The position numbers were made by a program, and so were the translations under genes. This document shows, in pieces, positions 3,152 through 27,085 of a stretch of 35,473 nucleotides of DNA. Numbering within the stretch: the stretch's first letter is position 1; the number at the start of each line of letters is the position of its first letter. The stretch covers positions 5,140-40,612 of the forward strand of contig CAZJKB010000001.1 of the NCBI GenBank assembly GCA_964546485.1, in the 5' to 3' direction. Origin of the DNA: an uncultured Candidatus Saccharibacteria bacterium (GTDB lineage: Bacteria > Patescibacteriota > Dojkabacteria > SC72). Under the pieces are notes generated by a model, which was not told the origin of the DNA, did no database searches, and saw only the letters and a list, made by a program, of their open reading frames with translations.

Positions 3152-3189
3152 AACTATATATTATATTTTTAAAGGAATATTATCAAGAA

Positions 3190-4221
3190 CTATTTTGATG
3201 GATAGTATACTCTTGATGGATCTATTGCATTTGTAAGGATAATCAATGGTAATTTTAGATCTTCTTTATTGAGTGTAGCTGTTCCTTCTGCTTCTATTCT
3301 ATATGTAGGTACTAATTGATTATAACTATTATCCTGATATATATATCCTAATTTTATCTTATTTCCTATTGAATTCTTATCAATATCTATACTATCAGCC
3401 AATTCGACCAATCCAATTCCTTCCTTAAGCTGTTTCGTGCTTGTTGATGTCGATTTTGGAGGATAGAAACCATAGTAAAGGGTTTTTGGATATTGTGTAT
3501 ATTTTATTGCTGCTTGAAGATAATCAAGAGTAACAATTTCAACATCTTGTGATCGTTTTGTATCTATCTGTGCAAGTAGGAGTGTACCTTCATAAAGCTT
3601 ACCAGATGAATCAACAGATACAGTATCGGAATACGATTGAAAACTATTGAAGAATAATGGATATCCATCTATACTTCTATTTGATTCAATTCTATTTAAA
3701 TACCCTGATTTAGTTATATTCTCATTTATATACTCATACTTATAACCTAAGTAATCATTAAATAATACACTTAGATATCCTTTCCCTGTGATACCATCAG
3801 TTGAAACCATTCTAGTGTTAGCTGGTTTTGTAAACTTAAAGAAAAGTGATTGATTATTTTTAATATACTCGACATAATCACCCTCTCCACTCCAAATATA
3901 GAGATTACCATCTATAGATGTTTTAGATAGATTTCCCTTACCTATTGTTATTAAGAATGAATCTATATTAGAACTCAGATTTATATCCTCAAGAGAGTAT
4001 ATTTTCATCTGCTTTGGGATATCTATAGACTTCTTTAACTCATCACTCATACTTACAACATGTGTTGTTTCTATTGAATATGGAGTATCTATTAAATATT
4101 CTCTAGGAGTTTCTTTTTTTGTTGCTTTAATAACTATATATATAATTATTGAGAAAATGAGAATAATTATACCTATTACTATTAACTGTATTCTTCTATT
4201 GTTTAAATCTATTTTTAACAT
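3190..4221 (-). CDS. N-terminally membrane-anchored extracytoplasmic protein, unknown function
   Basis: The track ORF 3190-4236 begins at a GTG. The first ATG (4219-4221, MLKIDLNNRRIQLIVIGIIILIFSIIIYIVI...) is the more likely start. It overlaps the upstream stop by 7 nt (CCATGTTAA), which suggests translational coupling. It has one TM helix followed by a beta-rich domain of about 300 aa with no cysteines. I recognise no family by eye. Confidence 0.7.
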   Translation of the reverse strand: MLKIDLNNRRIQLIVIGIIILIFSIIIYIVIKATKKETPREYLIDTPYSIETTHVVSMSDELKKSIDIPKQMKIYSLEDINLSSNIDSFLITIGKGNLSKTSIDGNLYIWSGEGDYVEYIKNNQSLFFKFTKPANTRMVSTDGITGKGYLSVLFNDYLGYKYEYINENITKSGYLNRIESNRSIDGYPLFFNSFQSYSDTVSVDSSGKLYEGTLLLAQIDTKRSQDVEIVTLDYLQAAIKYTQYPKTLYYGFYPPKSTSTSTKQLKEGIGLVELADSIDIDKNSIGNKIKLGYIYQDNSYNQLVPTYRIEAEGTATLNKEDLKLPLIILTNAIDPSRVYYPSK

Positions 4222-7187
4222 GGCGACATAGCACACTTTAATTTATCTCTATACCAAGATACAGAGTCTTGATATGTACCTTTAGATTTAACATGTAAAT
4301 GGAAGTGAGGACCAGTCCAACAAGTCACTGAATAATCACCACTTGGATCTAATCCATCTTGAGCAAGAGCAACTGCTCTTCCTTTTTGGACAGGACCTAC
4401 TGGTGCAAGAGCTTTGACATGTAAAAGAACATAAACATTTCCATCGGAGTCTTGAAATTCAAGATGACCACCATAATCTAAACCAGTTCCAGGACAATTA
4501 TTAACAGCTACATATTTTGTAATTTTTCCATTTGTAGGAGCATACCACACAGCCTTCCCTGCTGGCACAACTCTAGTTCCAATATCTATAGCTTTTGTTG
4601 ATTGGTGATATGATGAAGTACCTGCTCCATTTCCCTGTGTACATATAATTGGAGAGAATCCTAAAGGACAATCAGAATCAATAGGAGGGTAATCTCCACC
4701 CCCTGGGTTATCTGGTGGAGTAGGGAATAATCCTGCATCAGGATTATAATCTACACATTGTTTGGCACTACCAGGTGTTACATGTGCAAATGTATTATTA
4801 ACTTTTGTTGTGGGATTAAACAGCCCAACAAATCCAAATAAAAATACCAACAAAATAGCAACAAATCCCATCGCAGCAAGAAAGAAGATTTCTATCATAA
4901 ATTTACCTACTTTCATACCTAATTCTACTAGTACTGCAGATGCTATTGCTGTTAATGCACCACCTATAGGGCCACCAACACTCATACCTATTGCAGTTAA
5001 TAATTTACTAACACCAGCTTGTACTAATTGTCTAAAACCAATGCTCTTTGCTAAAAATTGTTCTACTGCTACACTATCACCGATTATCCTATTTAATAAT
5101 GTTGTCGCCCATTTTTTAATAATGGCATTATTCATAGGATTTATTTTATCTGAGATGACCCCAAAGAATCTCTCTGGAGTACTAAAAAGCTTAGTAGCAC
5201 CTGCCAATACCTTTTCAAATCTACCCAACATTGCTGCTTGGCTTGCAAATGCTCCCTTGGATTTAGCTATTTTAGATAATAGTTCTTCTAATTTCTCTGG
5301 GTTTGACAGTACCATTTTACTAAGGTCACCTGCTTTTAATTCGCCTTTATCATCAAAGAACTCCTTGATTAAAGCATATGTACCATCTTTCTTCATCTTA
5401 TCTATCATCCCACCATCTTTGAATCGACTTAAAAATTCAAGCCTATTTCTATATTGTAAGAAAGCAAATAATTCACCATTTGTTAAGCTTCCAAAAATTG
5501 TTCCTGGGTTTAAGTAATACAGATATGCAAAATTCCCATACCATGATTTAATCTCAGGATTTGGAGCTATGAATCCTTTTTTATTAAATTCTTTATATTT
5601 ATTTCCTTTTTCATCAGTCTTCCAAGTAAACATACTTTTGTTAAATGCAAGTTCACCATTGACTGATGGGTCAAACATATCACCTGTACCATAAAATCCT
5701 CTACCTCCTAAAAGAAGATTAGAAGCAAGCCCCCCTTTAATAATATTTGCATTTATTGAATCCCAAGAACCTTTCAGTGCTTCAAATCTATGTGCCCATC
5801 CTATCCTACCCATACCATTGATCTGTTGTTTCTGTAATTTGAGCAACCTTAATTTATCATCTATTTCAGATACCTTTGATGATTCACCACCAGTTCTTTG
5901 TAGGATAGAAAGTTCTGCATTGTATCTTTTTTCCAGCAGTTCTATCTCATCAAGCATAGATCTAATATATAATTTATTAGATCTTGTATCTCGACCATAA
6001 CTATTAAAAACCCTATTACCAAATCTCTTAGCATTTTTCTCAGAGTCAATAGCATTTTTTTCTAATTTCTTTAGCTGGGTTTGCATGTCATTAATTAAAG
6101 ATTTCTCTACAGGAGTTAAACTGCCTGTACCACCAATATCATTGATAATTTTTTGTACAGTTCCTATTTCTTTTTTTGCATTTTCAAATATACCTTTATT
6201 TTGAGCAGCTAACTCAATTTTTGTCATACCTGCATCCTGTGTTTTCTGAAGAACTGACATTAAACTTGCTGCCTTTAATAGTTCCTCTCTTCTCTTTCTT
6301 AATTCTGATACCTCTTGGGGAGTTGCACCAGTATTGGGATCAATTAATCTAGCTCTCTTTAATAAATTTTCAAGAGATATCTCCCTATATTTATTTGCTT
6401 GTAAATTAGCATCCTTATAGACAGCCCCATCTCCTCCTGCAGAACTTTTTATTTTAGTAACTTCATTCGTATGATCTTTAGCCACTTCAGCTGCCAAACT
6501 TCTTGCATCAGCATCTGAGAACCCTTTAGAGAAAATTTTATACAGATTTCCTTCACTAAAATCACCTGTTTTTGCATTATCTAAAAGTTCTAATGCTTTT
6601 GAGGCAATTTGTGGTTTTGCAATCAACTTATTAATAGCTATATTTTGAGCAATCTTTTTAAATGCCTCATTTTGCATATCCAGTGTTACCTGTCCTCCAG
6701 CTGCATATGCTAAATTCATAGCATTTTTCCCAGTTACACCATTCTTACTTGCCCATGCTAATGCCATTGCACCATCAATACCTTTTCCTAATGCAACAAA
6801 ATAGTTCCATTTTCTTGTCGCTTTCTCTGCATCAAACACACCATCAATGTATTTCTTAGGATTACTAAATAGTTTACCTAAGTCACTTGTTCTAACTCTA
6901 AGCCTTCCCGATGTATCAGGGTCTTTTTTATTTGGTTTACCAACATAACTTTCAAAAATTTTCTGATCTAATGCATTGTTTATTGCTCCTAATGCATTCT
7001 CACTTAAGTAAATACCTGGTTTACTCATTAATTCTGCCATTTGCTTGGCAATGATATTACTATTAGAGATATTATTATATTTTGGTGGTTTAATCTTTGG
7101 CTTTTTCTTCTTTGCTTCTTTATATAGGAAATCAAAGACCGAAGCCAATGGATCACCACTATTTTTTGATTTACCTTTTTTAGCCAT
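4215..7187 (-). CDS. Large coiled-coil membrane protein with C-terminal M23 (LytM-type) metallopeptidase domain
   Basis: 990-aa ORF starting at ATG. About 728 aa are Cys-free, Lys/Glu/Ala-rich and predicted helical, with no signal peptide. A hydrophobic block at aa 729-790 (nt 4818-5003) reads GGPIGGALTAIASAVLVELG / FMIEIFFLAAMGFVAILLVFLFGFVGLF. The C-terminal 200 aa (nt 4218-4817) carry 7 Cys and the M23 signature YHQSTKAIDIG ... GGHLEFQD ... GPHFHLHV (H..xD and HxH motifs). Confidence 0.8.
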   Translation of the reverse strand: MAKKGKSKNSGDPLASVFDFLYKEAKKKKPKIKPPKYNNISNSNIIAKQMAELMSKPGIYLSENALGAINNALDQKIFESYVGKPNKKDPDTSGRLRVRTSDLGKLFSNPKKYIDGVFDAEKATRKWNYFVALGKGIDGAMALAWASKNGVTGKNAMNLAYAAGGQVTLDMQNEAFKKIAQNIAINKLIAKPQIASKALELLDNAKTGDFSEGNLYKIFSKGFSDADARSLAAEVAKDHTNEVTKIKSSAGGDGAVYKDANLQANKYREISLENLLKRARLIDPNTGATPQEVSELRKRREELLKAASLMSVLQKTQDAGMTKIELAAQNKGIFENAKKEIGTVQKIINDIGGTGSLTPVEKSLINDMQTQLKKLEKNAIDSEKNAKRFGNRVFNSYGRDTRSNKLYIRSMLDEIELLEKRYNAELSILQRTGGESSKVSEIDDKLRLLKLQKQQINGMGRIGWAHRFEALKGSWDSINANIIKGGLASNLLLGGRGFYGTGDMFDPSVNGELAFNKSMFTWKTDEKGNKYKEFNKKGFIAPNPEIKSWYGNFAYLYYLNPGTIFGSLTNGELFAFLQYRNRLEFLSRFKDGGMIDKMKKDGTYALIKEFFDDKGELKAGDLSKMVLSNPEKLEELLSKIAKSKGAFASQAAMLGRFEKVLAGATKLFSTPERFFGVISDKINPMNNAIIKKWATTLLNRIIGDSVAVEQFLAKSIGFRQLVQAGVSKLLTAIGMSVGGPIGGALTAIASAVLVELGMKVGKFMIEIFFLAAMGFVAILLVFLFGFVGLFNPTTKVNNTFAHVTPGSAKQCVDYNPDAGLFPTPPDNPGGGDYPPIDSDCPLGFSPIICTQGNGAGTSSYHQSTKAIDIGTRVVPAGKAVWYAPTNGKITKYVAVNNCPGTGLDYGGHLEFQDSDGNVYVLLHVKALAPVGPVQKGRAVALAQDGLDPSGDYSVTCWTGPHFHLHVKSKGTYQDSVSWYRDKLKCAMSPC

Positions 7188-7198
7188 TATTAGTTATA

Positions 7199-8680
7199 TT
7201 ATCCAGCTATAAATGAACCGATAATAGGGATCTTTGCAGCAGCTTTTCTAGCCCCATCAATCGCTGTAGCGGCTCCTTTTCCACCTTCAACTTGTATGAA
7301 ATCAGCAAGGAAATTAGGAACTTCAGCAGCTAAAAAGAACATACCAATTGCAAGGAAAGCCTTTAATAAACCTCCAATTGCACCATTATCTGTTCCTCCT
7401 GCGGACCAATCACCTTGAGCTAATCCATGAGGAAAAGATATATTTATCTGATCCTGAAGTATAAATGAAGCAAGGTTTAAGAAGAGGAATACACCTGGAA
7501 ATACTAATGCATTTTTCAATACTCTCTTAAACAAATTTGATGTTAAGTTTTCTTGTCCAGGAATACTTCCAAATGCAATAACTAATGGAGCTAATATCAC
7601 ATCAATGATTATTGATAGATATGCTGTTAGCAATGTTATGTATACCCTAAATGAAGCATATGCAATTATTGCAACAAATATTAATACCAAAATTAAAAGT
7701 CCTATAATGAGACCAACACCAGCTGCTCCTGCTGTCGCAAGTGTAAAGAAACCTGCAGCAGAACCAACAATACCCATTCCTAAACCTGCAGCTGCACTTC
7801 CTCCTGCTAACCAACTACCTGTACCTGAGTCAAATAAACCTTCCATAACTGAACCTCCAAACCATAACTCTTTAACTAAGCTAATTGGATTATCAACAAA
7901 TACAGGATCAGTAACACCTAAAACCCCACCTATCACATTTGTTCCTATCATAGAAATATTCAAGATAAGACCTATAATTGCAAAACTGAATGGTACCAAT
8001 ATTAAACCGATAATAACATTAGGTAATGCATTAAATACTGTTACTGCAACTTGTCCACCAATCTTTTGTCTAAGCATGATCATAAACCCTGCAGCTATGA
8101 GTACAACAACAAATAATACATATGCAATTAAAGATGTTCTCTCCCATAAAGCATCAATACCGATTTCGGATAAAAAACTATAACCATCGGTAGCAGCATA
8201 AACTCCTGAATTTGCTTCCTCGTAGCCTGGTACCCAGTCGTTTGCCAATGCAACTGGTACATTTATTGTTGGAGTACTTTTTAACAATGCAACATTCTGC
8301 CCTTCAAAGAAATCCATAATTCCTTGTTTATTATAAGACTCAATTGTTGGATCATTTGCAACATCATCTATATTTGAGAAAACTGCTGGTGCAATAGTTG
8401 TAAGAAATGAATTAATCAAGCCAACAAAAGTATTCAAAACACCTAAATCAGAATTCGGACCTGTATCACCTGTTAAATGACCAGATACAGTACTCTGAAC
8501 CTGATAAGTTTTTTGCATATCAATAAATCCAGAAGCATTTACAGTATAAACATTCAAGATATTGAAAAGAAAAAATACTGTAGCAATAAAAGCTAGAAAG
8601 TTTTTAGCTGAGTTACTTTTAATAAAAGTAATCCCTTTTTGAATATATTTAAATATACCTATAATCAGTTCTGAGTTCAT
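7199..8680 (-). CDS. Polytopic Gly/Ala-rich integral membrane protein; its topology resembles VirB6/TrbL, but this is unverified
   Basis: 493-aa ORF starting at ATG. An N-terminal TM (FLAFIATVFFLFNILNVYTV) is followed by a soluble loop of about 130 aa, then at least 6 hydrophobic helices (LIAYVLFVVVLIAAGFMIM, VIIGLILVPFSFAIIGLILNI, GLIIGLLILVLIFVAIIAYA, IIIDVILAPLVIAFG, ALVFPGVFLFLNLASFIL, LLKAFLAIGMFFLAA). There is a glycine-rich stretch, GSWLAGGSAAAGLGMGIVGSAAGF. It lies 11 nt from the downstream gene. Confidence 0.7.
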   Translation of the reverse strand: MNSELIIGIFKYIQKGITFIKSNSAKNFLAFIATVFFLFNILNVYTVNASGFIDMQKTYQVQSTVSGHLTGDTGPNSDLGVLNTFVGLINSFLTTIAPAVFSNIDDVANDPTIESYNKQGIMDFFEGQNVALLKSTPTINVPVALANDWVPGYEEANSGVYAATDGYSFLSEIGIDALWERTSLIAYVLFVVVLIAAGFMIMLRQKIGGQVAVTVFNALPNVIIGLILVPFSFAIIGLILNISMIGTNVIGGVLGVTDPVFVDNPISLVKELWFGGSVMEGLFDSGTGSWLAGGSAAAGLGMGIVGSAAGFFTLATAGAAGVGLIIGLLILVLIFVAIIAYASFRVYITLLTAYLSIIIDVILAPLVIAFGSIPGQENLTSNLFKRVLKNALVFPGVFLFLNLASFILQDQINISFPHGLAQGDWSAGGTDNGAIGGLLKAFLAIGMFFLAAEVPNFLADFIQVEGGKGAATAIDGARKAAAKIPIIGSFIAG

Positions 8681-8718
8681 AATATCTATAATTAAATTAA
8701 CTTAAATAGTATACCAAA

Positions 8719-10104
8719 TTAATAACAACTTTGAGACCATAATTCTGCCTGTTTATTTACATAACTCCAATATTCCTCAAATGTAGCAGGAATATTAGTT
8801 TCTCCAGGTCTTGCATCTCTCTTTTGTCTATACCAATCATTTTTATATACTGTCATATCCCAAATACATGGAATTTTATATATACCTTTTCCATCAACTC
8901 TAACTTTACAAGGTGTTGATACATAGAAAGGATCTACAGCAGGAGCATTTGATACTAATGTATCTTGTACACCAGCCGGAGCCATAGCTTTTGCATATCC
9001 AGGAGCTGTTCTTCCTTGTACTACATAATCCATATAGAAACCAGCATTTTGATTTTTGACTTCTCTGTATGGTGTACCCATTAAAGCATCAACTTCTAGT
9101 GCATACATAACATTGGCTTTACAATTCTCTGGGTCTGGTTCCTCATAAACAAGATTACCATTTGCATCTTTTACATATTTACCCACAGTACAATCTAACC
9201 AATTTTGTACAGTAACAGAAGCAAAAATTGTAAAGTTAAAAGGAAATTTCTTTGATACACAGCTTTTAAATTCATCTGCACCAGCTACAGGTACCATTCC
9301 CCCATCTCCCGTTTTACAATTTAAACCAGCATATGTTCTATTTCCAACCTTAGCTCCTGGAGATTGAAACATGAAATTTAATACATTACCTGCAACTTTA
9401 TTTGAAAAATCAGGATTAGGAGAAGCACTCTGTACCTTAGGACAAACAGATTGTAATTCTCTCTCTATAACAGCTGCATTTAATGTATAATCTGCATTTT
9501 CTTGATCTGTTTTTAATCTAAGATTAAATTCATAGTTTTCTGTTTTATTATCCTGATTTAATTGATCAACTTCCTGTATACAAGCAGATCCAGGAGGACA
9601 ATATGATCGAGCTTCTGCATATGAAATCATTTGATTTGCATTTTTATATGTTCCATTCATACCTTTATCTGTACTCCATATTGCCATTCTACTATCTTCA
9701 ACATATCGACTTCCAGATAGTATTGCTGTAGGTACAGTAATTTCTGCGATCTCAATAACAGAGTTATCAGTTATTTGAACTCCTTTGCCACCTCTACCTA
9801 TCTCTGTTCCATCTCCAACAGTTATACTTGCACCATCTTGAGTACATATTGGTTGATATTTAAGTCTATTTGCTGCTTCACATGGACTACCACTAGTACA
9901 ACCAGTTCCTAAAACTGCACTTGTTCTATTCGTATTTTGATTTGTTTGAATACTACTATTATTAATCTTTACTGGTTGAAGATTAATTGTAGATTGACCA
10001 AATACTTTACTAACTACATTTTCACCACTAAAAGCACTATATATCCCAAAAAGAGATATAACTAAAAAGAGTAATAATAAAAGGTTGTTTCTTTTCATAT
10101 TCAT
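8719..10104 (-). CDS. Secreted cysteine-containing protein, unknown function
   Basis: 461-aa ORF starting at ATG. It has a clear signal peptide, MNMKRNNLLLLLFLVISLFGIYSAFS. About 13 Cys are spread through the mature protein, which ends ...WSQSCY. There is no further TM helix and I recognise no family by eye. Confidence 0.75.
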   Translation of the reverse strand: MNMKRNNLLLLLFLVISLFGIYSAFSGENVVSKVFGQSTINLQPVKINNSSIQTNQNTNRTSAVLGTGCTSGSPCEAANRLKYQPICTQDGASITVGDGTEIGRGGKGVQITDNSVIEIAEITVPTAILSGSRYVEDSRMAIWSTDKGMNGTYKNANQMISYAEARSYCPPGSACIQEVDQLNQDNKTENYEFNLRLKTDQENADYTLNAAVIERELQSVCPKVQSASPNPDFSNKVAGNVLNFMFQSPGAKVGNRTYAGLNCKTGDGGMVPVAGADEFKSCVSKKFPFNFTIFASVTVQNWLDCTVGKYVKDANGNLVYEEPDPENCKANVMYALEVDALMGTPYREVKNQNAGFYMDYVVQGRTAPGYAKAMAPAGVQDTLVSNAPAVDPFYVSTPCKVRVDGKGIYKIPCIWDMTVYKNDWYRQKRDARPGETNIPATFEEYWSYVNKQAELWSQSCY

Positions 10105-10127
10105 ATCTAGGATTTTACAATATTTCC

Positions 10128-11981
10128 TTAGAAAACTCTATCTATCATATCAATATTTTTCTTTTTTCTTTTAATAAAGAAAGACACTATTAATATGAGA
10201 GATATTAAGGAGAGAATAAATGATGGAATCCATATAGATGTTTTAGGTGTTTCATCCAGATCATCAAGTGAACCACCACCTATACCACCAGCATCATCTG
10301 TGTTAGGTACTGATGCATTATATACTCCATAACTCTTAAGTTTTGCAACTTTTACAGGCTCATTTATAGTCACTGATGATAATACTTTGAGTTGGATATC
10401 GGAATCGGATATTGAAGAGTATTTAATTGTTTCTGTATCTTTATCAAAATATCCAAGGGAAGTGATGATAATACTATCATCATTTGATGCATTGTAATAG
10501 TTTAATCCATCACTAGTCCTTATATCACCAATAGATACTATCCAATTACCTTGATCATCAGGAGTAGCAGATGATTTGGTGGATTTACCTGAACTACCAG
10601 AACCATCTTTATCTTCTATCTCTACAACTATTAAAGCATCTTTCATATTTGATACACCTGTTAGTTTTCCTGATATTGTCTTAAATTCAGGTGGTGAAGA
10701 TAGTGTTTTAAATGTTTTAACACTAAATGGTGCACTATTATTTAATATTGTTGTAGTTCCTGAGATTATTTCAAAAAAATATTCTGTTTCTGGTTGTAAT
10801 CTTGAGAGGGAAACAGAGTGCTGGTAATACTTACCTTTAGATAACATACTGTCTTTTTCATCATAACCTGTATTATCTAGTGCTTGAGCTGTGGTACCAT
10901 ACTTAATATAACCATCTTGTGCTGTATTTGTTGTCCAAGATATTGTAAATCCGGTATCTGTAAGATTTGAAATTAAGACAGATTTATCACCAATTAATAC
11001 ATTGGTTGGTACAGAGGTCTGAGCTGTTGTACCAGCAACAGGATTTATTGATACCTGCTTAACATATCTAAACACTCTAGTTCCTGTATATTCATCATCA
11101 GGATCTTCCACTATTGGTTCTTCTGGCTCTTCAACTACTGGTTCTTCAGGGGTCTCAGGTTCTTCTACAACAGGTGTTTCTGGTACTTCAGGGGTAGTTG
11201 TCTTAACTGATGCAATAATTGCATTTGCAGGGAGTATAGTTGAAACTGAAATAGTACTACTAGTATCTAGTATATATGTACTATTTAACTTACCTTCATT
11301 TGAGAATAGTTCAGAATATCTTCCTGTAATATACTTACCTGCTTCTGATTTTCCTCTAACAAATATTTTTAATTGTGTATCACTTTCAATATCAACCAAT
11401 GTACTACTTCCATCTCTAAGAGCAGAGAGGTCTATTACCCAGTTACCTGCACTACTAGAGGTAGTACTTGCAGGATACATTTTGCTTGAATCAGTAGTTA
11501 TATATACTAAATAATCATCGGATGATACACCTGTTATTGTTCCATAAACAGGTTTAGGAACTGGAGATCCAGATACTAACTTAGAAGTAGTGAATTTAAA
11601 ATCTTTACCATTTTCTGTAGTATATTTTTTTCCATTAGAAGTAATATAGAAAGAATATTCTGTTTCAGGATCTAAATCATTAATTTCAACATGATGAGTA
11701 TATCTTTTACTATTTCCTCTAATATCTAAATATGGTTTAGATTCTTTTCCATTTTTCGTAGTAACTAGAGTACCAAGGGTTTGTGCATCAGTTATCCATG
11801 TTACAGTTATAGAATTAGATGTTAGATTTGATATAACTACACCCTTTGGATCCTCTTGTGGTGCTGCTCCTGTAAAAAATTGAACTGCAAAATATGATGC
11901 TAATACTGTAAAAGGAATAGCTAAAGCAATAATTGCAGTTATTAAGAGATATCTTTTCTTTTGTTTTGACGATACATACAT
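10128..11981 (-). CDS. Surface protein with two FN3 (purple-acid-phosphatase-N-like) plus beta-sandwich modules, a Pro/Glu linker and a C-terminal hydrophobic anchor
   Basis: 617-aa ORF starting at ATG, with an N-terminal anchor YLLITAIIALAIPFTVLASYF. The FN3-like signatures are ITVTWITDAQTLGTLV...RYTHHVEINDLDPETEYSFYITSNG and FTISWTTNTAQDGYIKYG...YYQHSVSLSRLQPETEYFFEIISG. The linker is PEVPETPVVEEPETPEEPVVEEPEEPIVEDPDDE. The C-terminus is ETPKTS-IWIPSFILSLISLILIVSFFI-KRKKKN. Confidence 0.8.
   Translation of the reverse strand: MYVSSKQKKRYLLITAIIALAIPFTVLASYFAVQFFTGAAPQEDPKGVVISNLTSNSITVTWITDAQTLGTLVTTKNGKESKPYLDIRGNSKRYTHHVEINDLDPETEYSFYITSNGKKYTTENGKDFKFTTSKLVSGSPVPKPVYGTITGVSSDDYLVYITTDSSKMYPASTTSSSAGNWVIDLSALRDGSSTLVDIESDTQLKIFVRGKSEAGKYITGRYSELFSNEGKLNSTYILDTSSTISVSTILPANAIIASVKTTTPEVPETPVVEEPETPEEPVVEEPEEPIVEDPDDEYTGTRVFRYVKQVSINPVAGTTAQTSVPTNVLIGDKSVLISNLTDTGFTISWTTNTAQDGYIKYGTTAQALDNTGYDEKDSMLSKGKYYQHSVSLSRLQPETEYFFEIISGTTTILNNSAPFSVKTFKTLSSPPEFKTISGKLTGVSNMKDALIVVEIEDKDGSGSSGKSTKSSATPDDQGNWIVSIGDIRTSDGLNYYNASNDDSIIITSLGYFDKDTETIKYSSISDSDIQLKVLSSVTINEPVKVAKLKSYGVYNASVPNTDDAGGIGGGSLDDLDETPKTSIWIPSFILSLISLILIVSFFIKRKKKNIDMIDRVF
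11094..11195 (-). repeat. Imperfect short tandem repeat encoding the Pro/Glu-rich interdomain linker
   Basis: On the + strand, the octamer ggttcttc occurs at 11116-11123, 11140-11147 and 11158-11165, with spacings of 24 and 18 nt. On the coding strand this gives repeated (E)EP(E/V) units, aa 263-296 of the 617-aa protein. Confidence 0.6.
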
Positions 11982-12048
11982 ACTAAATATGAATATACTT
12001 TATACTAAAAGATATCATGAAAACATCTTAATGTGTATATATTAATTG

Positions 12049-12366
12049 TTATTTTATAAAGCCTTTAATAAAAGATGATATTGATCTAATAGGAACAATT
12101 AATACTTCGTTGAATTCATCTATTGTATTTTTTATATTTCCTAAACTACCTTTAAGTCCTGAAACAACTTCAGATGTATCATCAACTATTTTTCTTGCAC
12201 CTCTGATTATTTCTCTACTATCTTGAATAGTTCCTTGTACTTCTTTTAGAGTATTTGTACTTTCTTTAACAAGCATTGCTACATAGTATAGTATTAATGC
12301 AAGCATTCCTGATAGTACTCCAATAACTATCATCCAATATAGTGCAGGTATTGTGTTTGTATCCAT
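12049..12366 (-). CDS. Small single-pass membrane protein with a coiled-coil tail (DUF948-like by eye)
   Basis: 105-aa ORF starting at ATG. The N-terminal TM is ALYWMIVIGVLSGMLALILYYVAML. It is followed by a heptad-like helical region, KESTNTLKEVQGTIQDSREIIRGARKIVDDTSEVVSGLKGSLGNIKNTIDEF. It lies 18 nt downstream of the 1320-aa gene. Confidence 0.6.
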   Translation of the reverse strand: MDTNTIPALYWMIVIGVLSGMLALILYYVAMLVKESTNTLKEVQGTIQDSREIIRGARKIVDDTSEVVSGLKGSLGNIKNTIDEFNEVLIVPIRSISSFIKGFIK

Positions 12367-12384
12367 AATTATAAATATATAAAA

Positions 12385-15300
12385 TTAATTAGAACCTGGT
12401 TTACCATGAGAAGAACCTCCTGGATTCCAAATTATCGATTTGGTATTATTATCTGTTCCCTCAAATTTAACTATTCTTACAAAATATCCTAGATCTCTTG
12501 ATATTGGGAAATCAAATCCATAGGTAGTTCCATCAGATACTTGTAATCCCTCATATTTACCTTTTGATGTTGGCCACCATGTTACATTATCTGCTGTTAA
12601 TCCACCAACAGAATTAATAGAATCAATAAATGATTTAGCTGTATATGTTGTTGTATAACCATTAACACCTACTAAGTTCCAACCTGATGAAAGAGCTACA
12701 GGTATAGAAGATTTAATATTTAATGCTGGAATATCCATTGAAAAATCAAAGTTTGATTGTAATAAATAACCTCGTCCTAATACTAATGTGAAATCATTAC
12801 CAATAAACTTAGAAAAATCACTCTCATTTACTCCAATACCTGATACCCATTTTCCTCCCTCAAAATATGAAATACTTTTTATGAAATTACCATTAAAATT
12901 TAAAAGCTTTAGTAATTCACCTGCAGTCATAGGTTTACTCCCATCCGAAGATAGTATTGCTGGGAATGAGACAATATTAATACCTCTTTTCAAGTTTAAT
13001 TTAAAATTCGAAGATATCTTCTCAACAATTATATCTTCACTTGTTAAATCTATTAATTCATCTCCAGCTGTTAAACCTTTATAACCATCTTTTTCAACAT
13101 ACAGAGAAATATCTGAATCTGTATTTGGAATAGAATATTTGAAATCCTTGCCATCAACCTTAATTGAGTATATTCCTGCCTCAGGGAATAGCTTTAATGT
13201 TCGAACATTAGCATCAACACCTAGTACAGAGGTAATACCTTTAACATTTGAATTAGCTACACATTCACTTTTTGTTTTTCTTAATGCATCATTTACTAGA
13301 TTACCACTACATTTCTTTTCTCCCCAGCTACTTAATTTTGTTTCAGTATTATAACAGCAATAACCACAACTCTGAATATCTCTATCAGTCGAGGTCCAAC
13401 CAGTTCCGACTCCATTAGCATCGGACCATCGTAACTCACCATTCATATTCCCACTCCAACACACTTTCTGATACAAATCCATATTCACAGAATTACTTGA
13501 ATCACTATTAATACAACTATACTGTGTAGTTAAGTTAGGGAAGCTTTTCAATTTATCTTTCTTGATTCTTGGATCATTATGTAGCAGCCACGATGAAATA
13601 TAATATGTACCAAAATCTTTTCCATAACAACCATAACCTTTTGATCCCAAGTCAATATTGGAACAATCTGCATAGCCAACAACCTTTTCATTAGATTCAC
13701 ATTTTGAGTCTGTATGCATAGAGTTATCAGTTCTTTGACAACATACCTTTTGATTAGAAAATGCACAGAAGGCATTATCCCTAATCTTGCCTCCAGATAC
13801 TTCACAAGCATTTCGAGTTTTTGGGGTTGAACTATTTGAACAACAAATTTTAGACATTTCTACTGGTTTAATATCTTCACATTTTCCTTTTCCTAAAATC
13901 TCCTGATCAACCCTACAATATGAAGCATTAACTAAACTCCCATCACTAGTTTTACAACATACTGCTTGATTAGGGATAGAACAGTATCCAGAATCTATTT
14001 CTTTGGTACATTCTGATTTTTTCTTTAATATTCCAGTAATATTGTTTCCTCCAGTCCTTTGACAACATACTTTTTCATTTAAGTACTCATTTAAATCACC
14101 ACAATATTTTTGTCCCGTTTGTAAATCAAGTAATAAATAATATGAAGACCCAACCTCAAGATTGGCTGAACAACTTAATGATATATTACCAACAACATCA
14201 GGTGCACAACCTGTAGGTTTATCAAATCTATCTAATTCTATATGATAAAACTTCTTACAACTCTTACCATCCCATTTACCTGTTGAAGGATCACAATTAG
14301 TCTTACCACTTGATGCAGTACATTCACCTGTACTTTGATCCTCTGGAATTACAGGAGGAATAACAACAACTTTTTTACTACACTTATTGGTATAATCTGC
14401 ACAGTTCTCGGTTTTTGATATATTGAAAGTATCCGAACCACCATCTGTAGTATAACCAGGTTTTATATTACTACATTTACATTGTATTTGATCATTCTCA
14501 GGTTCCGGAGCTAAATCAGGAATTGAAGTAGGATTGTATATACCAATACATTTTTTCAAGTCTTTATCAAAAGCAGAACCCTCAGAACATGTATAACAAA
14601 CTCCATTACATACAGTTCCTTTTTCTTCTTTACATCCCTTAACATCGGGTACAAATGTTTGATTGGTCCCATTACAACTATCTGGTCTTGTATTAATATT
14701 AGATGCACTAACATCTTCACAACCCACAGGAATTGCTAAATTATTATCTTTATAATACTTTACACTTTTACATAATTGACCGTTAGATTGAACTTTTGGT
14801 GTACAATCACCGCCAACACATTCTATTTCTCCTCTTGAATAATTTGCACATGATGCAGGTCTACAATCATCACCTATTTTATAATACTTACTTGCAGATT
14901 TACTATAACAGTAACAGCCAGCATTCTCTGTACAATCTTTCGCCAGCTCACCACTACAATCATTTGGTATTGCCTTATTATCTACATTTGTTGTTCCCCC
15001 AGACTGTGGATATATCCTACATTTAGTAGTAGACCCATCTAGACAACCATAAGGACAATCCTGTGCACAATTAAACTCCTTTTCTCTTGAAACACAATTC
15101 CCTTTTGCATTACATTTATGAGTTGCTTGATTACAAGTTGCTGCAGAACATGTTGCACTAGTAGATCCGCCCCCATTGTTAGGTGTTGTAGTTTTCTTTG
15201 TGCAAGACCATCTGCCTGTTGCTCCTCCTGGAACACATTGACATTCATAATCTCCTTCTGTTCTTTTTTCACCAAAATACTTCGAATTACATACATCACC

Positions 15301-16347
15301 AGATTTAGTTGCATATACATCACTACTAATAATATCTATTAGTTGAGATTGCATAATCTTTTCATCAATAAATATCTCAAATTTCTTAAAAATATCTCCC
15401 CTATATTTATCAGGAACTCCACCAAGAATATTATCTGCAGGACTATCATTTTTACCCCATATATACTGGGTCTGATATACCTCTTTTATATTTTCAACCT
15501 GTGCTGATATCTTTAGATAGTCAATATTATCTTTATAGTAGTTAGTTGCAAGTGATCCATCATTTTTTCGAAAATTTGATTTATCAATTGTCCAACCAGC
15601 ATCCTTATTAGTTACAGAAGAAAGTACATTAGAGATTTCTTTATCATCTCCATAGGCATACATAAATACTATGGAATCGGTATTTAGGTTCTCTTCAATA
15701 AACCCATCTTTATTATATACACCTGATAATACTTTTCCGTATGCAGGATTAGGTGTTGGTATATTTTCTGGTTCTGAGAATGTATTAAAAGAAAAAGTAT
15801 CAATTGTTTTGAATTCATACTCTCCAATATTTTGTTTTACACTATTAATATTCCAACTTCTTAACCCATTTGAAACTCTAAAATAGTATTTAGTATTAGG
15901 ATTTAAGTTAAATATTGTTGCATGATGTACATAATATTTTCCAAGTTTAGTTACTTTAATATTTTCGAAATCTTGAGAGTCTATCTCTGAATTATATTCA
16001 CTATCTACATTTTTAAGTGCATCTTTAGTTATTTTTTCAAGTCTTTCTGATAGTGCTTGATTATAATCTCTATCATCATAACCTTTTGTATACCCACTCC
16101 AAGGAAAGAATTCATCTTTATCATTTGCCAAAACTACTCCACTATCTGCCCTATCAGTTACCCATGATATTGTCGCAGAACTTCCTGTAATATTTGATAC
16201 CCTAACCTTAAGAGGTGTATTTGTTAATGAATATACTAATGATACTAAAAGATACCCCAATCCAAGTATAATTCCAATCAATAAAACATATTTAAGAACA
16301 CCCCAGACAACTTGTTTAACTCTTGTGATATTTAGTGCAAATTTCAT
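12385..16347 (-). CDS. Giant (1320 aa) membrane-anchored surface protein: FN3 plus beta-sandwich module, a cysteine-rich core of about 680 aa, and a duplicated C-terminal beta module
   Basis: Starts at ATG. The N-terminal anchor is VWGVLKYVLLIGIILGLGYLLVSLVY. The FN3-like signature is ATISWVTDRADSGVVL...YYVHHATIFNLNPNTKYYFRVSNG. All of the roughly 62 Cys lie between aa 353 and 1029 (nt 13261-15294), with none before or after. A CC-containing module is repeated five times (VCCQRT, VCCKTS, ICCSNS, VCCQRT, YCCYNT). Confidence 0.85.
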   Translation of the reverse strand: MKFALNITRVKQVVWGVLKYVLLIGIILGLGYLLVSLVYSLTNTPLKVRVSNITGSSATISWVTDRADSGVVLANDKDEFFPWSGYTKGYDDRDYNQALSERLEKITKDALKNVDSEYNSEIDSQDFENIKVTKLGKYYVHHATIFNLNPNTKYYFRVSNGLRSWNINSVKQNIGEYEFKTIDTFSFNTFSEPENIPTPNPAYGKVLSGVYNKDGFIEENLNTDSIVFMYAYGDDKEISNVLSSVTNKDAGWTIDKSNFRKNDGSLATNYYKDNIDYLKISAQVENIKEVYQTQYIWGKNDSPADNILGGVPDKYRGDIFKKFEIFIDEKIMQSQLIDIISSDVYATKSGDVCNSKYFGEKRTEGDYECQCVPGGATGRWSCTKKTTTPNNGGGSTSATCSAATCNQATHKCNAKGNCVSREKEFNCAQDCPYGCLDGSTTKCRIYPQSGGTTNVDNKAIPNDCSGELAKDCTENAGCYCYSKSASKYYKIGDDCRPASCANYSRGEIECVGGDCTPKVQSNGQLCKSVKYYKDNNLAIPVGCEDVSASNINTRPDSCNGTNQTFVPDVKGCKEEKGTVCNGVCYTCSEGSAFDKDLKKCIGIYNPTSIPDLAPEPENDQIQCKCSNIKPGYTTDGGSDTFNISKTENCADYTNKCSKKVVVIPPVIPEDQSTGECTASSGKTNCDPSTGKWDGKSCKKFYHIELDRFDKPTGCAPDVVGNISLSCSANLEVGSSYYLLLDLQTGQKYCGDLNEYLNEKVCCQRTGGNNITGILKKKSECTKEIDSGYCSIPNQAVCCKTSDGSLVNASYCRVDQEILGKGKCEDIKPVEMSKICCSNSSTPKTRNACEVSGGKIRDNAFCAFSNQKVCCQRTDNSMHTDSKCESNEKVVGYADCSNIDLGSKGYGCYGKDFGTYYISSWLLHNDPRIKKDKLKSFPNLTTQYSCINSDSSNSVNMDLYQKVCWSGNMNGELRWSDANGVGTGWTSTDRDIQSCGYCCYNTETKLSSWGEKKCSGNLVNDALRKTKSECVANSNVKGITSVLGVDANVRTLKLFPEAGIYSIKVDGKDFKYSIPNTDSDISLYVEKDGYKGLTAGDELIDLTSEDIIVEKISSNFKLNLKRGINIVSFPAILSSDGSKPMTAGELLKLLNFNGNFIKSISYFEGGKWVSGIGVNESDFSKFIGNDFTLVLGRGYLLQSNFDFSMDIPALNIKSSIPVALSSGWNLVGVNGYTTTYTAKSFIDSINSVGGLTADNVTWWPTSKGKYEGLQVSDGTTYGFDFPISRDLGYFVRIVKFEGTDNNTKSIIWNPGGSSHGKPGSN

Positions 16348-21979: not shown

Positions 21980-23512
21980 TTACTTGATTACCTTATAACA
22001 GTAAAGGGCATCACCTTCTTTAGCTTCAACATTTTTATCAAGAATAGCACCAAAATCCTGTCCATTCTTAGCTTCTGTTATCGTATCTTTATTATGTCTA
22101 AGTGAATCTATTCTTGCTTCAACTAATATTTCATCGTCTCTAACTATATATACCTTACAGCCTTTTTTAACTACTCCTTTTTCCATTCTACAACCAATTA
22201 CCTGCGAACCATTAGTTAATGTAAATATCTGTTTAATTATTGCATTTCCAATCTCCTCCTCTACTTCATCACCTGCAGCAAGAGAAGTTAACACATCAGA
22301 AACTTCATCTACTAATTTATATATAATATTATATGTTCTTACTAATACTCTCTTTTGCAATGCTAATGGTTCAACACCATTATCTGTTGATACTTCAAAA
22401 CCTAAGATTATAGATTTTGTTACTATTGCATGTTCTACATCATTTAATGATATATCACCTATCCCAGATCGTATAATTTCAACCTTTGCTTCCTCTGTAT
22501 TTAGTTTTTCAATACTTTTTTTAATTGCTTCCAATGCACCTTCTGAAGATGACTTTATTATTACCTTTAGTTTCTTTACATCTGTTGTATCAGTCTGTTT
22601 TAATCCAAAGAATGAAGCAAAATTATCAGTACTCATCTGTTCTATCTCTTCTTGTTGTTCTTTTATAGTTATGTATTTCTGTAATACCTTTTCTTCTTTC
22701 TTATCCATAACATATATAACAGAACCAGGCTCAATAACCTGTGATAGCCCAAGTATTCTACCTCCGTATCCTTGTGTCATAGATTCTATAACTTCATTCT
22801 CTTCTGTTATTAAACCTTTAATTTTTTCTATAACTATTTCCTTTCCACTTCTATAACCAATAAAGTTCGATGCTTTCATTGATCCTTGGAGTAAAATCAT
22901 AGAAGATACTAAACCCTTACTCTTATCCTTAACTGTTTCTAAAACAACTCCAGATCCTATTACAGAATCAGGTAGAATATCTCTATCAATATAACCCTCA
23001 ACATCAACAACAAGTGATATTGTCTCTAAGAGCAAATCTATTCCTAATCCTGTCTTACCTGATACCTGAACAACTGGAATATTTCCACCCAAACCTTCAA
23101 GTAGCAAACCTCTATTTGAAATATCTCTTTTAATCTTTTCAATATTTATATCTGGCAAATCAACCTTATTAATTACTACAATTGGTTTTGCTTTAGATGA
23201 TTTAATAATCTCAATAGATTCCTCTGTTTGTGGTTGGACACCATCATCTGCGGCTACAATTAACAAAACTACGTCTGCTATGCTTCCACCTCTAACTCTC
23301 ATTAAATCGAATGCTTCATGTCCTGGTGTATCTATAAATGTAATTTTTCTACTATCTTTAGATAATATTGTAAAAGCAGAAATCTTTTGAGTTATTCCAC
23401 CTACTTCCTTATTTTGAACATTAGTATTTCTTATTTTATCCAATATTGTAGTTTTACCATGATCTACATGTCCTAAAATTGCTACAACTGGAATTCTATT
23501 ATTATTCTCCAT
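21980..23512 (-). CDS. infB: Translation initiation factor IF-2, short form lacking the N-terminal extension
   Basis: The track ORF starts at a TTG (23527). The ATG at 23510-23512 is preceded by AAGGAG and is the likelier start (MENNNRIPVVAILGHVDHGKTTILDKIR). G motifs GHVDHGKT, DTPGHEAF and NKVD are present, followed by the C-terminal beta-barrel domains. Confidence 0.93.
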   Translation of the reverse strand: MENNNRIPVVAILGHVDHGKTTILDKIRNTNVQNKEVGGITQKISAFTILSKDSRKITFIDTPGHEAFDLMRVRGGSIADVVLLIVAADDGVQPQTEESIEIIKSSKAKPIVVINKVDLPDINIEKIKRDISNRGLLLEGLGGNIPVVQVSGKTGLGIDLLLETISLVVDVEGYIDRDILPDSVIGSGVVLETVKDKSKGLVSSMILLQGSMKASNFIGYRSGKEIVIEKIKGLITEENEVIESMTQGYGGRILGLSQVIEPGSVIYVMDKKEEKVLQKYITIKEQQEEIEQMSTDNFASFFGLKQTDTTDVKKLKVIIKSSSEGALEAIKKSIEKLNTEEAKVEIIRSGIGDISLNDVEHAIVTKSIILGFEVSTDNGVEPLALQKRVLVRTYNIIYKLVDEVSDVLTSLAAGDEVEEEIGNAIIKQIFTLTNGSQVIGCRMEKGVVKKGCKVYIVRDDEILVEARIDSLRHNKDTITEAKNGQDFGAILDKNVEAKEGDALYCYKVIK

Positions 23513-23513
23513 A

Positions 23514-23846
23514 TTACTCCTTTTCAATATTATCTAATTCACTTTTAGAAATTCTAACAACATTCTTTTCACCTAATTTAGTTTCAATATATGCTGCAAA
23601 ATCTTTTTCTAAAATAGAATAATCTTCTTTAGTGAATGTCATATTATACACTCTTTTGAATATATTTTGTTGAATTGCTTTTCTCAATATCTCAAGATTT
23701 GGTTTAATATTCACACCTCGTGATCTTACTTTGCCTTTAGTATCAACAACTAATTTACCTTCACTAATACTGATTCTAATTAGCATATGCTTAGGCAATC
23801 TCTCTTTAGTTACTGCACACATTCTGGTTGCAATATGCTTATCCAT
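23514..23846 (-). CDS. ylxR: YlxR/RnpM-family (DUF448) RNA-binding protein
   Basis: 110 aa. RMCAVTKERLPKHMLIRISI...GKVRSRGVNI matches the YlxR pattern R.C..c....K.eLiRiv....d..gk.pGRGaY. It sits between nusA and infB, as is typical. Confidence 0.8.
   Translation of the reverse strand: MDKHIATRMCAVTKERLPKHMLIRISISEGKLVVDTKGKVRSRGVNIKPNLEILRKAIQQNIFKRVYNMTFTKEDYSILEKDFAAYIETKLGEKNVVRISKSELDNIEKE
23517..23522 (-). promoter_or_regulatory. Shine-Dalgarno sequence (AAGGAG) for infB
   Basis: The minus strand reads AAGGAG-taat-ATG. This is the only strong SD I found by eye in this window, and it lies at the very end of ylxR. Confidence 0.6.
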
Positions 23847-26293: not shown

Positions 26294-27085
26294 ATGGAGA
26301 GTTCAAATTGGAATATTGAAAAACAAAAATTAAACAAAAAGAAAGCTGAAAAAATTAGAAATGTTTTTGCTGGAATATTTGCAATCATTGGTGTATTAAT
26401 ACTACTTTCTCAGGTATCCCCTGTTCTTTCTAGCTACATATCTGGAGTTATTTATGAATATAGAGCTGGAATACTTGCAAAACCTATACCAGATGCACAC
26501 AAAGAATATATATCAGGTGATTTTGCATATTACAATCCCGGGGAAAGCTACTTTCAAAACCTAGTTGGTACATTAACAGATATTACAAATACTGATCTTG
26601 AGACATCAAGTAGTGTTAGTTTAAAAATAGATCAGTCATATTCTAGAGAAATGAAGATATCAATAAAGGATATAGGAATTAACAATATAATAATAACACC
26701 AAATGTTGAGAGCTATGATGAAAATATATATAATAAAGAGTTGAAGAAGGGTGTTGCTCATTTTAAAGGAACTCCTATACCTGGAGATGGAGGAAATTCA
26801 TTTATATATGGACATAGTGCAGTACCATCATTTATGAATAGAAACAATAATATTCCTGAAGTTATATTCTCAAAATTAGAAAATATAGATATAGGCAATG
26901 AAGTTGTGATAAATAAAGAGGGTGAAAATCTTAAATATATAGTAAGAAATAAGAAGATAATTGATCCTACAGATTTTACAGTATTTAAACAGTCCGGAGG
27001 AAAAGAGACAGTAACACTTATGACATGCTGGCCACTTGGCATTCCAGCAAAAAGATTAATTGTAATAGCAGAAAAATATGAATAA
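26294..27085 (+). CDS. Sortase-family transpeptidase with N-terminal membrane anchor
   Basis: 263 aa. The TM is IRNVFAGIFAIIGVLILLSQV. The catalytic His context is GNSFIYGHSAV, the catalytic Cys motif is TLMTCWP, and a downstream Arg is present (PAKRLIVIAE). Confidence 0.85.
   Translation: MESSNWNIEKQKLNKKKAEKIRNVFAGIFAIIGVLILLSQVSPVLSSYISGVIYEYRAGILAKPIPDAHKEYISGDFAYYNPGESYFQNLVGTLTDITNTDLETSSSVSLKIDQSYSREMKISIKDIGINNIIITPNVESYDENIYNKELKKGVAHFKGTPIPGDGGNSFIYGHSAVPSFMNRNNNIPEVIFSKLENIDIGNEVVINKEGENLKYIVRNKKIIDPTDFTVFKQSGGKETVTLMTCWPLGIPAKRLIVIAEKYE

Follow-up and report, generated by a model that had tools for sequence, protein, structure and literature searches.

A cysteine-rich, strain-variable centre in a predicted surface protein at the head of a conserved eight-gene envelope cluster of Patescibacteria, probably Dojkabacteria

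Background

The window analysed here, a stretch of 35,473 nucleotides (nt) from the chromosome of an uncultured Patescibacteria bacterium (contig CAZJKB010000001.1), contains a gene for a predicted surface protein of 1320 amino acids (aa) in which a central region, the core, holds all of the cysteines. We consider it rather likely that this core is an exposed and rapidly diversifying scaffold held by disulfides, carried by the product of the first gene of a conserved eight-gene envelope operon. The core is most likely the exposed, fast-evolving face of the protein because its cysteines are kept and its loops are not, because modules have been gained and lost, because entire centres have been replaced among relatives, and because it is a hot spot of change between strains.

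Host recognition and attachment by Patescibacteria, the bacteria of the candidate phyla radiation (CPR), are largely unknown, and the Dojkabacteria are without a cultured system. The locus described here is a concrete candidate, being a conserved envelope operon whose first gene has invariant ends and a Cys-scaffolded centre, one that is turned over from one species to the next and where near-identical strains chiefly differ in amino acids.

The Cys-rich core and its modules

The gene and its parts, with the evidence for each in brackets, are as follows; positions are those of the window, CC denotes two adjacent cysteines, FN3 is fibronectin type III, and A1 and A3 are alignments of family members.

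12385..16347, minus strand: surface-protein gene, 1320 aa (open reading frame list; stop codon 12385-12387)
16228..16347, minus strand: predicted cytoplasmic tail and hydrophobic membrane anchor, aa 1-40 (hydrophobic stretch at about aa 10-40; predicted N-in, C-out)
15856..16206, minus strand: FN3-like domain, aa 48-164 (Pfam Pur_ac_phosph_N, PF16656; 37.2 bits against a cut-off of 30, E=4.6e-9)
15313..15780, minus strand: second conserved Cys-free N-terminal domain, beta-rich, aa ~190-345 (BLASTP conservation in all relatives)
13261..15291, minus strand: Cys-rich central region, aa 353-1029, 677 aa with 62 Cys, 9.2% Cys (direct count)
14803..14958, minus strand: most widely conserved core module, aa 464-515, C..C....GC.C ... 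DCRPASCAN ... C.GG.C (core alignment A3)
14206..14322, minus strand: module C..G.K.C...GKW.GK.C, aa 676-714, immediately upstream of the CC array (aligned in the window protein and relatives P0002-P0004)
13660..14091, minus strand: tandem array of four CC modules, aa 753-896 (753-790, 789-824, 828-861 and 861-896), four Cys each (period 36/38/34 aa)
13261..13380, minus strand: fifth CC module, aa 990-1029, C-G-Y-C-C ... W ... C ... C, abutting the C-terminal domain (best conserved copy among relatives)
12388..13260, minus strand: conserved Cys-free C-terminal domain, aa 1030-1320, 291 residues (alignment A1, 25 invariant columns)
12751..12993, minus strand: C-terminal subdomain B, aa 1119-1199, first copy of an internal repeat of ~85 aa, G-I-N-I-V-S-F-P ... 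G-R-G-Y-L (hhalign)
12469..12693, minus strand: C-terminal subdomain C, aa 1219-1293, second copy of the repeat, G-W-N-L-V-G ... G-Y-F-V-R (hhalign)

An earlier prediction made from the letters of this DNA alone (hereafter the original prediction) had placed about 62 cysteines between aa 353 and 1029 and none at either end, and direct counting finds this to be exact: the cysteines run from aa 353 (nt 15289-15291) to aa 1029 (nt 13261-13263), with none in aa 1-352 or aa 1030-1320. The end coordinate that it gave, 15294, is one codon too far upstream for the first Cys. The chance of all 62 landing within the core span is about 1e-18. Cysteine makes up 4.7% of the whole protein and 0.75% of nine housekeeping proteins of the window, so that the density remarked upon in the original prediction (9.2% in the core) is indeed exceptional relative to this genome.

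The five CC dipeptides stand at aa 761, 797, 835, 869 and 997. Their number is at chance level for 62 Cys in 677 aa (shuffle mean 5.6); the pattern in which they are set, a hydrophobic residue (h) followed by CC-x(10-18)-C-x(7-13)-C, is above chance, with at least four copies in only 25 of 50,000 shuffles. All five modules are present with the sequences that had been quoted for them, though the last loop of the fifth copy, at 15 residues, falls outside the x(8-12) originally proposed; each module is about 36 aa long, and all five follow h-C-C-x(11-17)-C-x(8-15)-C, four of them in tandem and one distal. The proximal half of the core has the short spacings that had been noted there (CQC, CYC and CKC, four CxxxC and two CxxC), but the EGF- or knottin-like label attached to them is not supported, there being no PROSITE EGF signature and no Pfam match at E<=1.

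The 1320-aa open reading frame (ORF) is a genuine chromosomal gene of a Patescibacteria bacterium. An independent assembly (ERZ795034) carries an ORF of the same length whose protein is 99% identical, on a contig that aligns with the window gap-free over 23,963 bases at 99.80% identity, and the orthologue P0002 (1245 aa) is 42% identical and collinear with the window protein from residue 1 to the end (BLASTP). The G+C content of the gene is in line with that of its flanks. Tandem Repeats Finder reported no array anywhere in the gene, and a self-BLAST of the core picked up no repeats; in the DNA, a diverged 28-nt repeat, found at 13728, 13944 and 14052 with its copies 216 and 108 nt apart, both of them multiples of 36 codons, maps to the NQKVCCQRT-type segments of CC modules 4, 2 and 1. 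Because Tandem Repeats Finder was blank and only this diverged trace is left, the CC modules are old duplicates and not an assembly artefact.

Conservation and module turnover in the family

Homologues comprised 16 proteins in 5.8 billion protein clusters, 14 more (mostly fragments) retrieved with a profile of the C-terminal domain, two in GTDB species-representative genomes (single-protein scan), and nine in JGI metagenome contigs, one of them a fragment from a fermentation metagenome. The family was found only in Patescibacteria, an assignment that is firm; members whose source is named are labelled Candidatus Dojkabacteria/WS6 (among the more distant ones), 'Patescibacteria group' or, once, 'uncultured Candidatus Saccharibacteria', and placement in the Dojkabacteria is probable. 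Every relative shows BLASTP high-scoring segment pairs to the conserved N-terminal ~310 aa and C-terminal ~285 aa around a variable centre, and identity to P0002 is uneven, at 66% for the N-terminal part, 57% for the C-terminal part and 31% for the core. Within the core, 49 of the 62 Cys (79%) are matched by Cys in P0002, whereas the other residues are 26% identical. Cysteines are thus far better conserved than their neighbours, the expected signature of structural disulfides. Those left unmatched come mostly from CC modules 1, 2 and 4, the first two being absent from P0002 and the fourth degenerate.

An alignment of the core across six members shows whole modules inserted and deleted, with the CC module recurring at equivalent positions in relatives; the CG[YFI]CC of the fifth module is kept in the window protein, P0002, P0003 and P0004. 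A few sub-modules are shared widely, chiefly those at aa 464-515 and aa 676-714. The D-C-R-P..C columns of the most widely conserved module are invariant in A3, and the motif is also visible in P0002-P0007, P0010, L006 and L008. The centres of other family members are entirely different, with 16 to 71 Cys and with Cys-poor centres in P0007, P0010 and L005, and Pfam reports no domain in any of them. Cys-richness is common to many centres but not to all. What defines the family is its pair of conserved Cys-free ends, between which the core is variable and interchangeable.

In the centre of one metagenome member (L016, 2262-5516), the segment 'APHLHYEV' looks like the M23 peptidase motif, but no domain was assigned there by Pfam; some family centres may carry enzyme-like inserts.

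Strain-level variation

Comparison of the window with the 99.8%-identical strain yielded 47 single-nucleotide polymorphisms (SNPs), 29 of which fall in the 1320-aa gene, which occupies 16.5% of the aligned length (binomial p=4e-12). All 29 lie within codons 357-1058, with 16 nonsynonymous to 13 synonymous changes against 1:16 over all other genes (Fisher p=0.0011), and no Cys is altered between the two strains. Three clusters stand out in the strain comparison:

15157..15279, minus strand: SNP cluster 1, codons 357-397, 8 SNPs
14536..14560, minus strand: SNP cluster 2, codons 596-604, 5 SNPs
13174..13259, minus strand: SNP cluster 3, codons 1030-1058, where core and C-terminal domain meet, 13 SNPs

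The density of SNPs within the clusters is far above background, which suggests that they are short recombination tracts.

The cysteine-free ends

Four K/R and no D/E precede the N-terminal hydrophobic helix, and the anchor is found in every full-length relative. The extracellular location proposed in the original prediction is likewise predicted here, from the K/R-flanked helix (N-in, C-out) and the FN3 domain right after it. The PF16656 match recurs in relatives; PF00041 (fn3) scores 18.1 bits on the same protein, under its cut-off of 25, and the FN3-like match concerns the N-terminal domain only, not the Cys-rich core. Together, the FN3-like domain and the second beta domain make up one unit, to which each half of the neighbouring 617-aa protein is paralogous (E=4e-8 and 3e-7).

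The AlphaFold2 model of the C-terminal domain is all-beta with two short helices and has a mean predicted local distance difference test score (pLDDT) of 80.6 and a predicted template-modelling score of 0.76. Its subdomains B and C are homologous to each other (hhalign probability 94.6%, E=6.5e-8). Foldseek found no significant match to this model in the PDB and BFVD (best E 0.02-0.03, template-modelling score <= 0.2), and neither the domain nor its A1 profile matched Pfam or PDB sequences; going by the model, the domain may be an undescribed fold.

The extreme C-terminal tail (last ~15 aa, 12388-12432) is conserved as W-N-P-G-G-x-x-H-G-x-P-G-S-N, and in P0007, P0010, P0011, L005, L006 and L010 it has a Cys pair instead (…C…WNPGG…G.CG.N). 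This tail could be a recognition or processing signal. The protein was rejected as a sortase (LPXTG) substrate, having no LPXTG-like motif and no C-terminal transmembrane (TM) segment, and it terminates in ...WNPGGSSHGKPGSN.

Searches for relatives of the core and the CC module

Neither Pfam, NCBIfam nor PDB sequences gave a match to the core, whether it was searched as a single sequence, member by member through the five relatives P0001-P0005, or as the A3 profile; Pfam returned nothing at E<=1 on the core of the window protein or of P0001-P0005, and NCBIfam gave only a spurious 13.9-bit SigW match on the window protein. A module profile of 39 positions (A2) was built from 16 CC modules. Its score per copy is 19-30 bits over the array of the window protein and 19-31 bits when P0002-P0005 are included, and it is not just reading Cys content, since other Cys-rich family members are not matched by it. 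In Pfam, NCBIfam and PDB sequences, neither this profile nor the whole protein brought up anything besides the N-terminal FN3-like domain. Run against 1.84 billion representative proteins, it returned four matches at E<=0.001, one of which is the query's own cluster. Two others were rejected as relatives, being near-perfect tandem repeats that resemble translated satellite-type sequence, and the remaining one, P0019 (407 aa, secreted-type), was rejected for its different tandem repeat of ~57 aa, EGEVCC...C...C (CC-x13-C-x22-C). P0002-P0005 are not among these matches, and the library may not contain them. The core profile added no further protein at E<=0.01 from the 5.8 billion protein clusters. 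As far as the libraries searched show, the CC module is therefore restricted to a small subclade, for neither of these profile searches adds a relative.

A literature search turned up no description of this family, module or operon. The impression recorded in the original prediction, that the CC module belongs to no named family, is borne out by the lack of a Pfam, NCBIfam or PDB match and of any convincing relative among the 1.84 billion proteins.

Interpretation and alternative explanations

In the arrangement that we propose, the N-terminal anchor would sit in the membrane with the rest of the protein outside the cell, the FN3-like and second beta domains would lie next to the membrane, the C-terminal domain of ~290 aa would occupy the far end, and a mosaic of 677 aa made up of small Cys-defined modules would run between the two. 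After export, the 62 Cys would be oxidised into ~31 disulfides, two per CC module, giving a compact scaffold that resists proteases, where constraint falls on the cysteines only and the loops can change freely. The core could in this way be the variable surface by which a partner or host cell is contacted, or one that is under pressure to escape recognition, for example by phage, and the conserved ends would hold the invariant contacts with the membrane and the operon partners.

That the core cysteines form disulfides we infer from their even count (62), their disulfide-like spacings, the absence of metal and heme motifs, and the enrichment of MdbA-like oxidoreductase and VKOR families in CPR bacteria (bioRxiv 10.1101/335083). 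Each CC module is probably a two-disulfide unit, with C1-C3 and C2-C4 as the probable pairing by analogy with other CC-C-C frameworks. As an exposed face, the centre would then mediate recognition or evade it.

Several observations weigh against this reading. The AlphaFold2 model of the whole core, built from six sequences, has a mean pLDDT of 37 and is unusable; it says nothing for or against a stalk or bead architecture, the best Foldseek match to it (E 2.8) was disregarded, and the modular fold and the pairing are predictions only. The disulfides, structure and function of the core are all things that we infer, and any binding partner is hypothetical. Members with Cys-poor centres indicate that the Cys-rich chemistry is dispensable for the family's basic role, and no Dsb, MdbA or VKOR gene is present in the window or the flanks examined. 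At the strain level, the CC array is identical in both strains and two of the three SNP clusters sit at the edges of the core; the comparison is one of just two metagenome-derived consensus sequences, and the clustering could stem from consensus calling in mixed-strain metagenome assemblies.

The main rival to a diversifying surface is that the Cys-rich centre is a passive spacer, a stalk of adjustable length that keeps the C-terminal domain at a distance from the membrane and through the wall, and whose sequence is little constrained beyond its disulfides, and that the C-terminal domain is the functional binding end. We place this on the unlikely side of possible. It draws support from the C-terminal domain, which is strongly conserved (25 invariant columns), folds confidently with AlphaFold2 and is farthest from the N-terminal anchor, and from the centres, whose wide variation in length and composition, with some being Cys-poor, fits a spacer of which only length or stiffness counts. 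A neutral spacer would nevertheless leave unexplained the excess and tight clustering of amino-acid-changing SNPs, as well as the persistence of sub-modules such as DCRPASCAN in distant members. The spacer and the diversifying surface are compatible, and one does not exclude the other. It is very improbable, on the other hand, that the cysteines act as ligands for metallothionein-like sequestration, Fe-S clusters or heme attachment in place of pairing with one another. Their very high density would suit such chemistry, as would the likely anoxic habitats of the relatives (the fermentation metagenome being one), where extracellular disulfides would be harder to keep oxidised; yet CxxCH and paired CxxC (Zn-ribbon) motifs are both absent from the core, whose 677 aa include just two CxxC and four His, and no Pfam metal-binding family matches it. 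Its cysteines are spaced by 7-20 residues within repeated units of four and are even in number, a pattern typical of disulfide modules.

The core might also belong to an already described Cys-rich family that sequence methods fail to see, such as the EGF-like, pacifastin-like or Myxococcus Cys-rich repeat families. Pacifastin-like domains detectable by structure only have been reported in CPR bacteria, including WS6 (2026 paper), P0016 contains sub-threshold EGF-like Pfam fragments, and mini-domains of pacifastin, VWF, mucin and FnI are among the insignificant Foldseek matches to the poor core model. Those matches have E >= 2.8 (pacifastin ~3) and come from the model with a pLDDT of 37, however, and each of the families was rejected: EGF-like domains by the absence of both PROSITE signatures (PS00022 and PS01186) and of any Pfam EGF-family match; the Myxococcus Cys-rich repeat and other named bacterial Cys-rich repeats by the lack of an NCBIfam or Pfam match; and pacifastin-like domains by the absence of the six-Cys pattern C-x(9-12)-C-x2-C-x-C-x(6-8)-C-x4-C from every family member, strict or loosened. 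The WS6 pacifastin-like entry is itself a protein of only ~103 aa, of another family and of unrelated architecture. With Pfam and NCBIfam giving no match at E<=1 to the core of the window protein or of P0001-P0005, we judge a hidden known family improbable. Diversity-generating retroelements (DGRs) are common in CPR genomes, and variation here is limited to short tracts, as a DGR acting on this gene might leave it; but no ORF of the window encodes a reverse transcriptase, none of the variable tracts recurs in the window as a template repeat, the substitutions are of mixed types and not adenine-specific, and 13 of the 29 SNPs are synonymous. A DGR origin is thereby largely refuted within the window, the gene there lacking the attributes of a DGR variable protein, and we regard it as highly improbable. 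The chance that the ORF is chimeric or frameshifted, or that its repeat was misassembled, is close to nil: the matter was checked as the source is a metagenome assembly, and nothing was found in favour. The identical-length ORF in ERZ795034, with no gaps over 23,963 bases, and the full-length collinearity of P0002 dispose of the chimera or frameshift that the original prediction had named as grounds for refutation, repeat collapse is unlikely given diverged modules and no Tandem Repeats Finder array, and the G+C content agrees with the flanks.

A more far-reaching version of the diversifying-surface reading, which we think unlikely, would make the protein the variable, partner-recognising part of an unrecognised eight-gene surface apparatus conserved across the Dojkabacteria, with a new C-terminal fold and a new disulfide-held module array diversified by module turnover and recombination to track hosts or escape phage. 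Ultra-small episymbiotic bacteria would then have a new class of system for attachment or recognition. If the core is a contact or evasion surface, its alleles could be used as metagenome markers of host range or phage pressure. The C-terminal domain, with its confident model and no PDB match, would be a target for structure determination, and the CC module, compact at ~36 aa and presumably closed by two disulfides, is a scaffold whose loops accept nearly any sequence.

Comparison with known systems

Large Cys-rich extracellular proteins have been described in the Peregrinibacteria, another CPR lineage, where rigidity or attachment was proposed as their role (Ca. Peribacter riflensis; Anantharaman et al. 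2016, PMC4736985), which is a published precedent of the kind that the original prediction had mentioned for episymbiotic ultra-small bacteria. Because of that description, the phenomenon of large, Cys-rich, strain-variable CPR surface proteins is already known, and what is new here is a defined family, module and operon and no new principle. The Peribacter proteins share with the window protein a CPR host, a length of >1000 aa, predicted export or membrane association, and concentrated strain variation; the window protein, with its 1320 aa, N-terminal anchor and SNP hot spot, belongs to this class by description and not by homology. Cysteine accounts for ~7% of the Peribacter proteins and 4.7% of the window protein. 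The homologues found for the window protein all have Dojkabacteria-type N- and C-terminal domains, and no sequence relationship to the Peribacter proteins was detected in the searches of 5.8 billion protein clusters, which returned this family only. The Peribacter proteins are also weakly similar to Myxococcus Cys-rich repeats and pappalysin, which the window protein is not, and they are encoded in a 14-gene cluster of Cys-rich proteins, whereas in the eight-gene operon of the window just this one product is strongly Cys-rich.

The variant-specific surface proteins (VSPs) of Giardia, a host-dependent, low-oxygen organism, are Cys-rich (~12%) and combine a hypervariable ectodomain with a conserved anchoring part. 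Like the window protein, they conserve a Cys scaffold while their loops vary. They are eukaryotic, however, with frequent CXXC and a C-terminal anchor, where the window core has only two CXXC and the protein an N-terminal anchor, and they vary by expression switching in a large gene family, where the window protein is a single locus undergoing allelic change and module turnover.

Among CC-C-C frameworks, alpha-conotoxins (framework I) and CC chemokines pair C1-C3 and C2-C4, which is why this pairing is proposed for the CC modules. Both have the same four-Cys order as the window modules, with the adjacent pair first, but the loops of the window modules are far longer than those of conotoxins and there is no sequence similarity to conotoxins or CC chemokines; those are also single units, whereas the window modules stand in a tandem array within a bacterial surface protein of 1320 aa. 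EGF-like, pacifastin-like and Myxococcus Cys-rich repeat domains resemble the window modules in being small, extracellular, disulfide-stabilised units in arrays, and differ from them by the negative hidden Markov model and pattern tests.

Gram-positive stalk adhesins with FN3 or Ig domains (e.g. SasG and Rib-domain proteins) are held to the wall by a C-terminal LPXTG/sortase anchor and are essentially Cys-free. They resemble the window protein in being modular, with domains of FN3 type close to the anchor and with repeats, in their case forming a stalk, that differ in number between strains and species; the window protein is unlike them in its N-terminal membrane anchor, its lack of LPXTG and its Cys-based module array.

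The eight-gene envelope operon and its genomic context

The 1320-aa gene is the first of eight same-strand genes (1973-16347, minus strand) that are separated by short gaps or overlap. The other seven, in the order of the operon and with the basis of each description in brackets, are:

12049-12366, minus strand: 105-aa TM/coiled-coil protein (topology)
10128-11981, minus strand: 617-aa protein with two FN3 domains and TM segments at both ends (Pfam and topology)
8719-10104, minus strand: 461-aa exported protein with 13 Cys (topology)
7199-8680, minus strand: 493-aa protein with ~9 TM segments (topology)
4215-7187, minus strand: 990-aa protein with a TM segment and an M23-like C-terminus (motif and topology)
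3190-4236, minus strand: 348-aa TM protein (topology)
1973-3151, minus strand: 392-aa SH3_3 protein (Pfam)

No terminator-like site was seen between the eight genes, and a promoter scan of the operon was uninformative, promoter-like sites being fewer than in shuffles. The order of the eight genes is kept in the genomes that carry P0002 (L001/L002), P0011 (L003/L004), P0001 and L005 (loci L001-L005 and L007); it is conserved down to ~35-43% identity and always lies beside rsmE/rsmB/pnp. The eight genes are a conserved, lineage-specific envelope gene cluster, and they may form a lineage-specific surface apparatus. No ATPase or phage domain was detected in the operon proteins, and readings of the operon as a prophage or a type IV secretion system were rejected on that account and for its chromosomal position, syntenic across species.

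Within the 617-aa protein, the two FN3-plus-beta units are joined by an acidic Pro/Glu-rich linker (PEVPETPVVEEPETPEEPVVEEPEEPIVEDPDDE), and the protein ends in a KRKKK tail with no LPXTG. All 13 Cys of the 461-aa protein follow its signal-like N-terminus, and it has no family match, only a ComP_DUS fragment at E 0.1. The first 810 residues of the 990-aa protein are Cys-free, and all seven of its Cys are C-terminal to the TM segment (aa ~760); its C-terminus carries an M23-type GPHFHLH motif, the orthologue in L003 gives a weak Peptidase_M23 Pfam match, and a PDB-sequence search with the 990-aa protein was empty.

The window as a whole is chromosomal, at ~31% G+C, and includes dnaJ, nusA, ylxR, infB, rpsO, pnp, rsmB, rsmE, alaS, ruvX, yceG, a LytR-family gene and a sortase. 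The infB product (translation initiation factor IF-2, 21980-23527) at 515 aa and the alanyl-tRNA synthetase (30689-32479) at 596 aa are both short for bacteria, which fits a reduced CPR genome. No LPXTG-type substrate was found among the window envelope proteins checked; the sortase gene (26294-27085, plus strand) overlaps the start of a solute-binding-protein gene (27078-28388, plus strand) by 8 nt. The genome carrying P0011 (L003, 1346-2767 and 7719-9936) has a RuBisCO large-subunit gene between infB and rpsO, and a PIN/AbiEii-type toxin-antitoxin block is inserted there between rsmE and the family gene.

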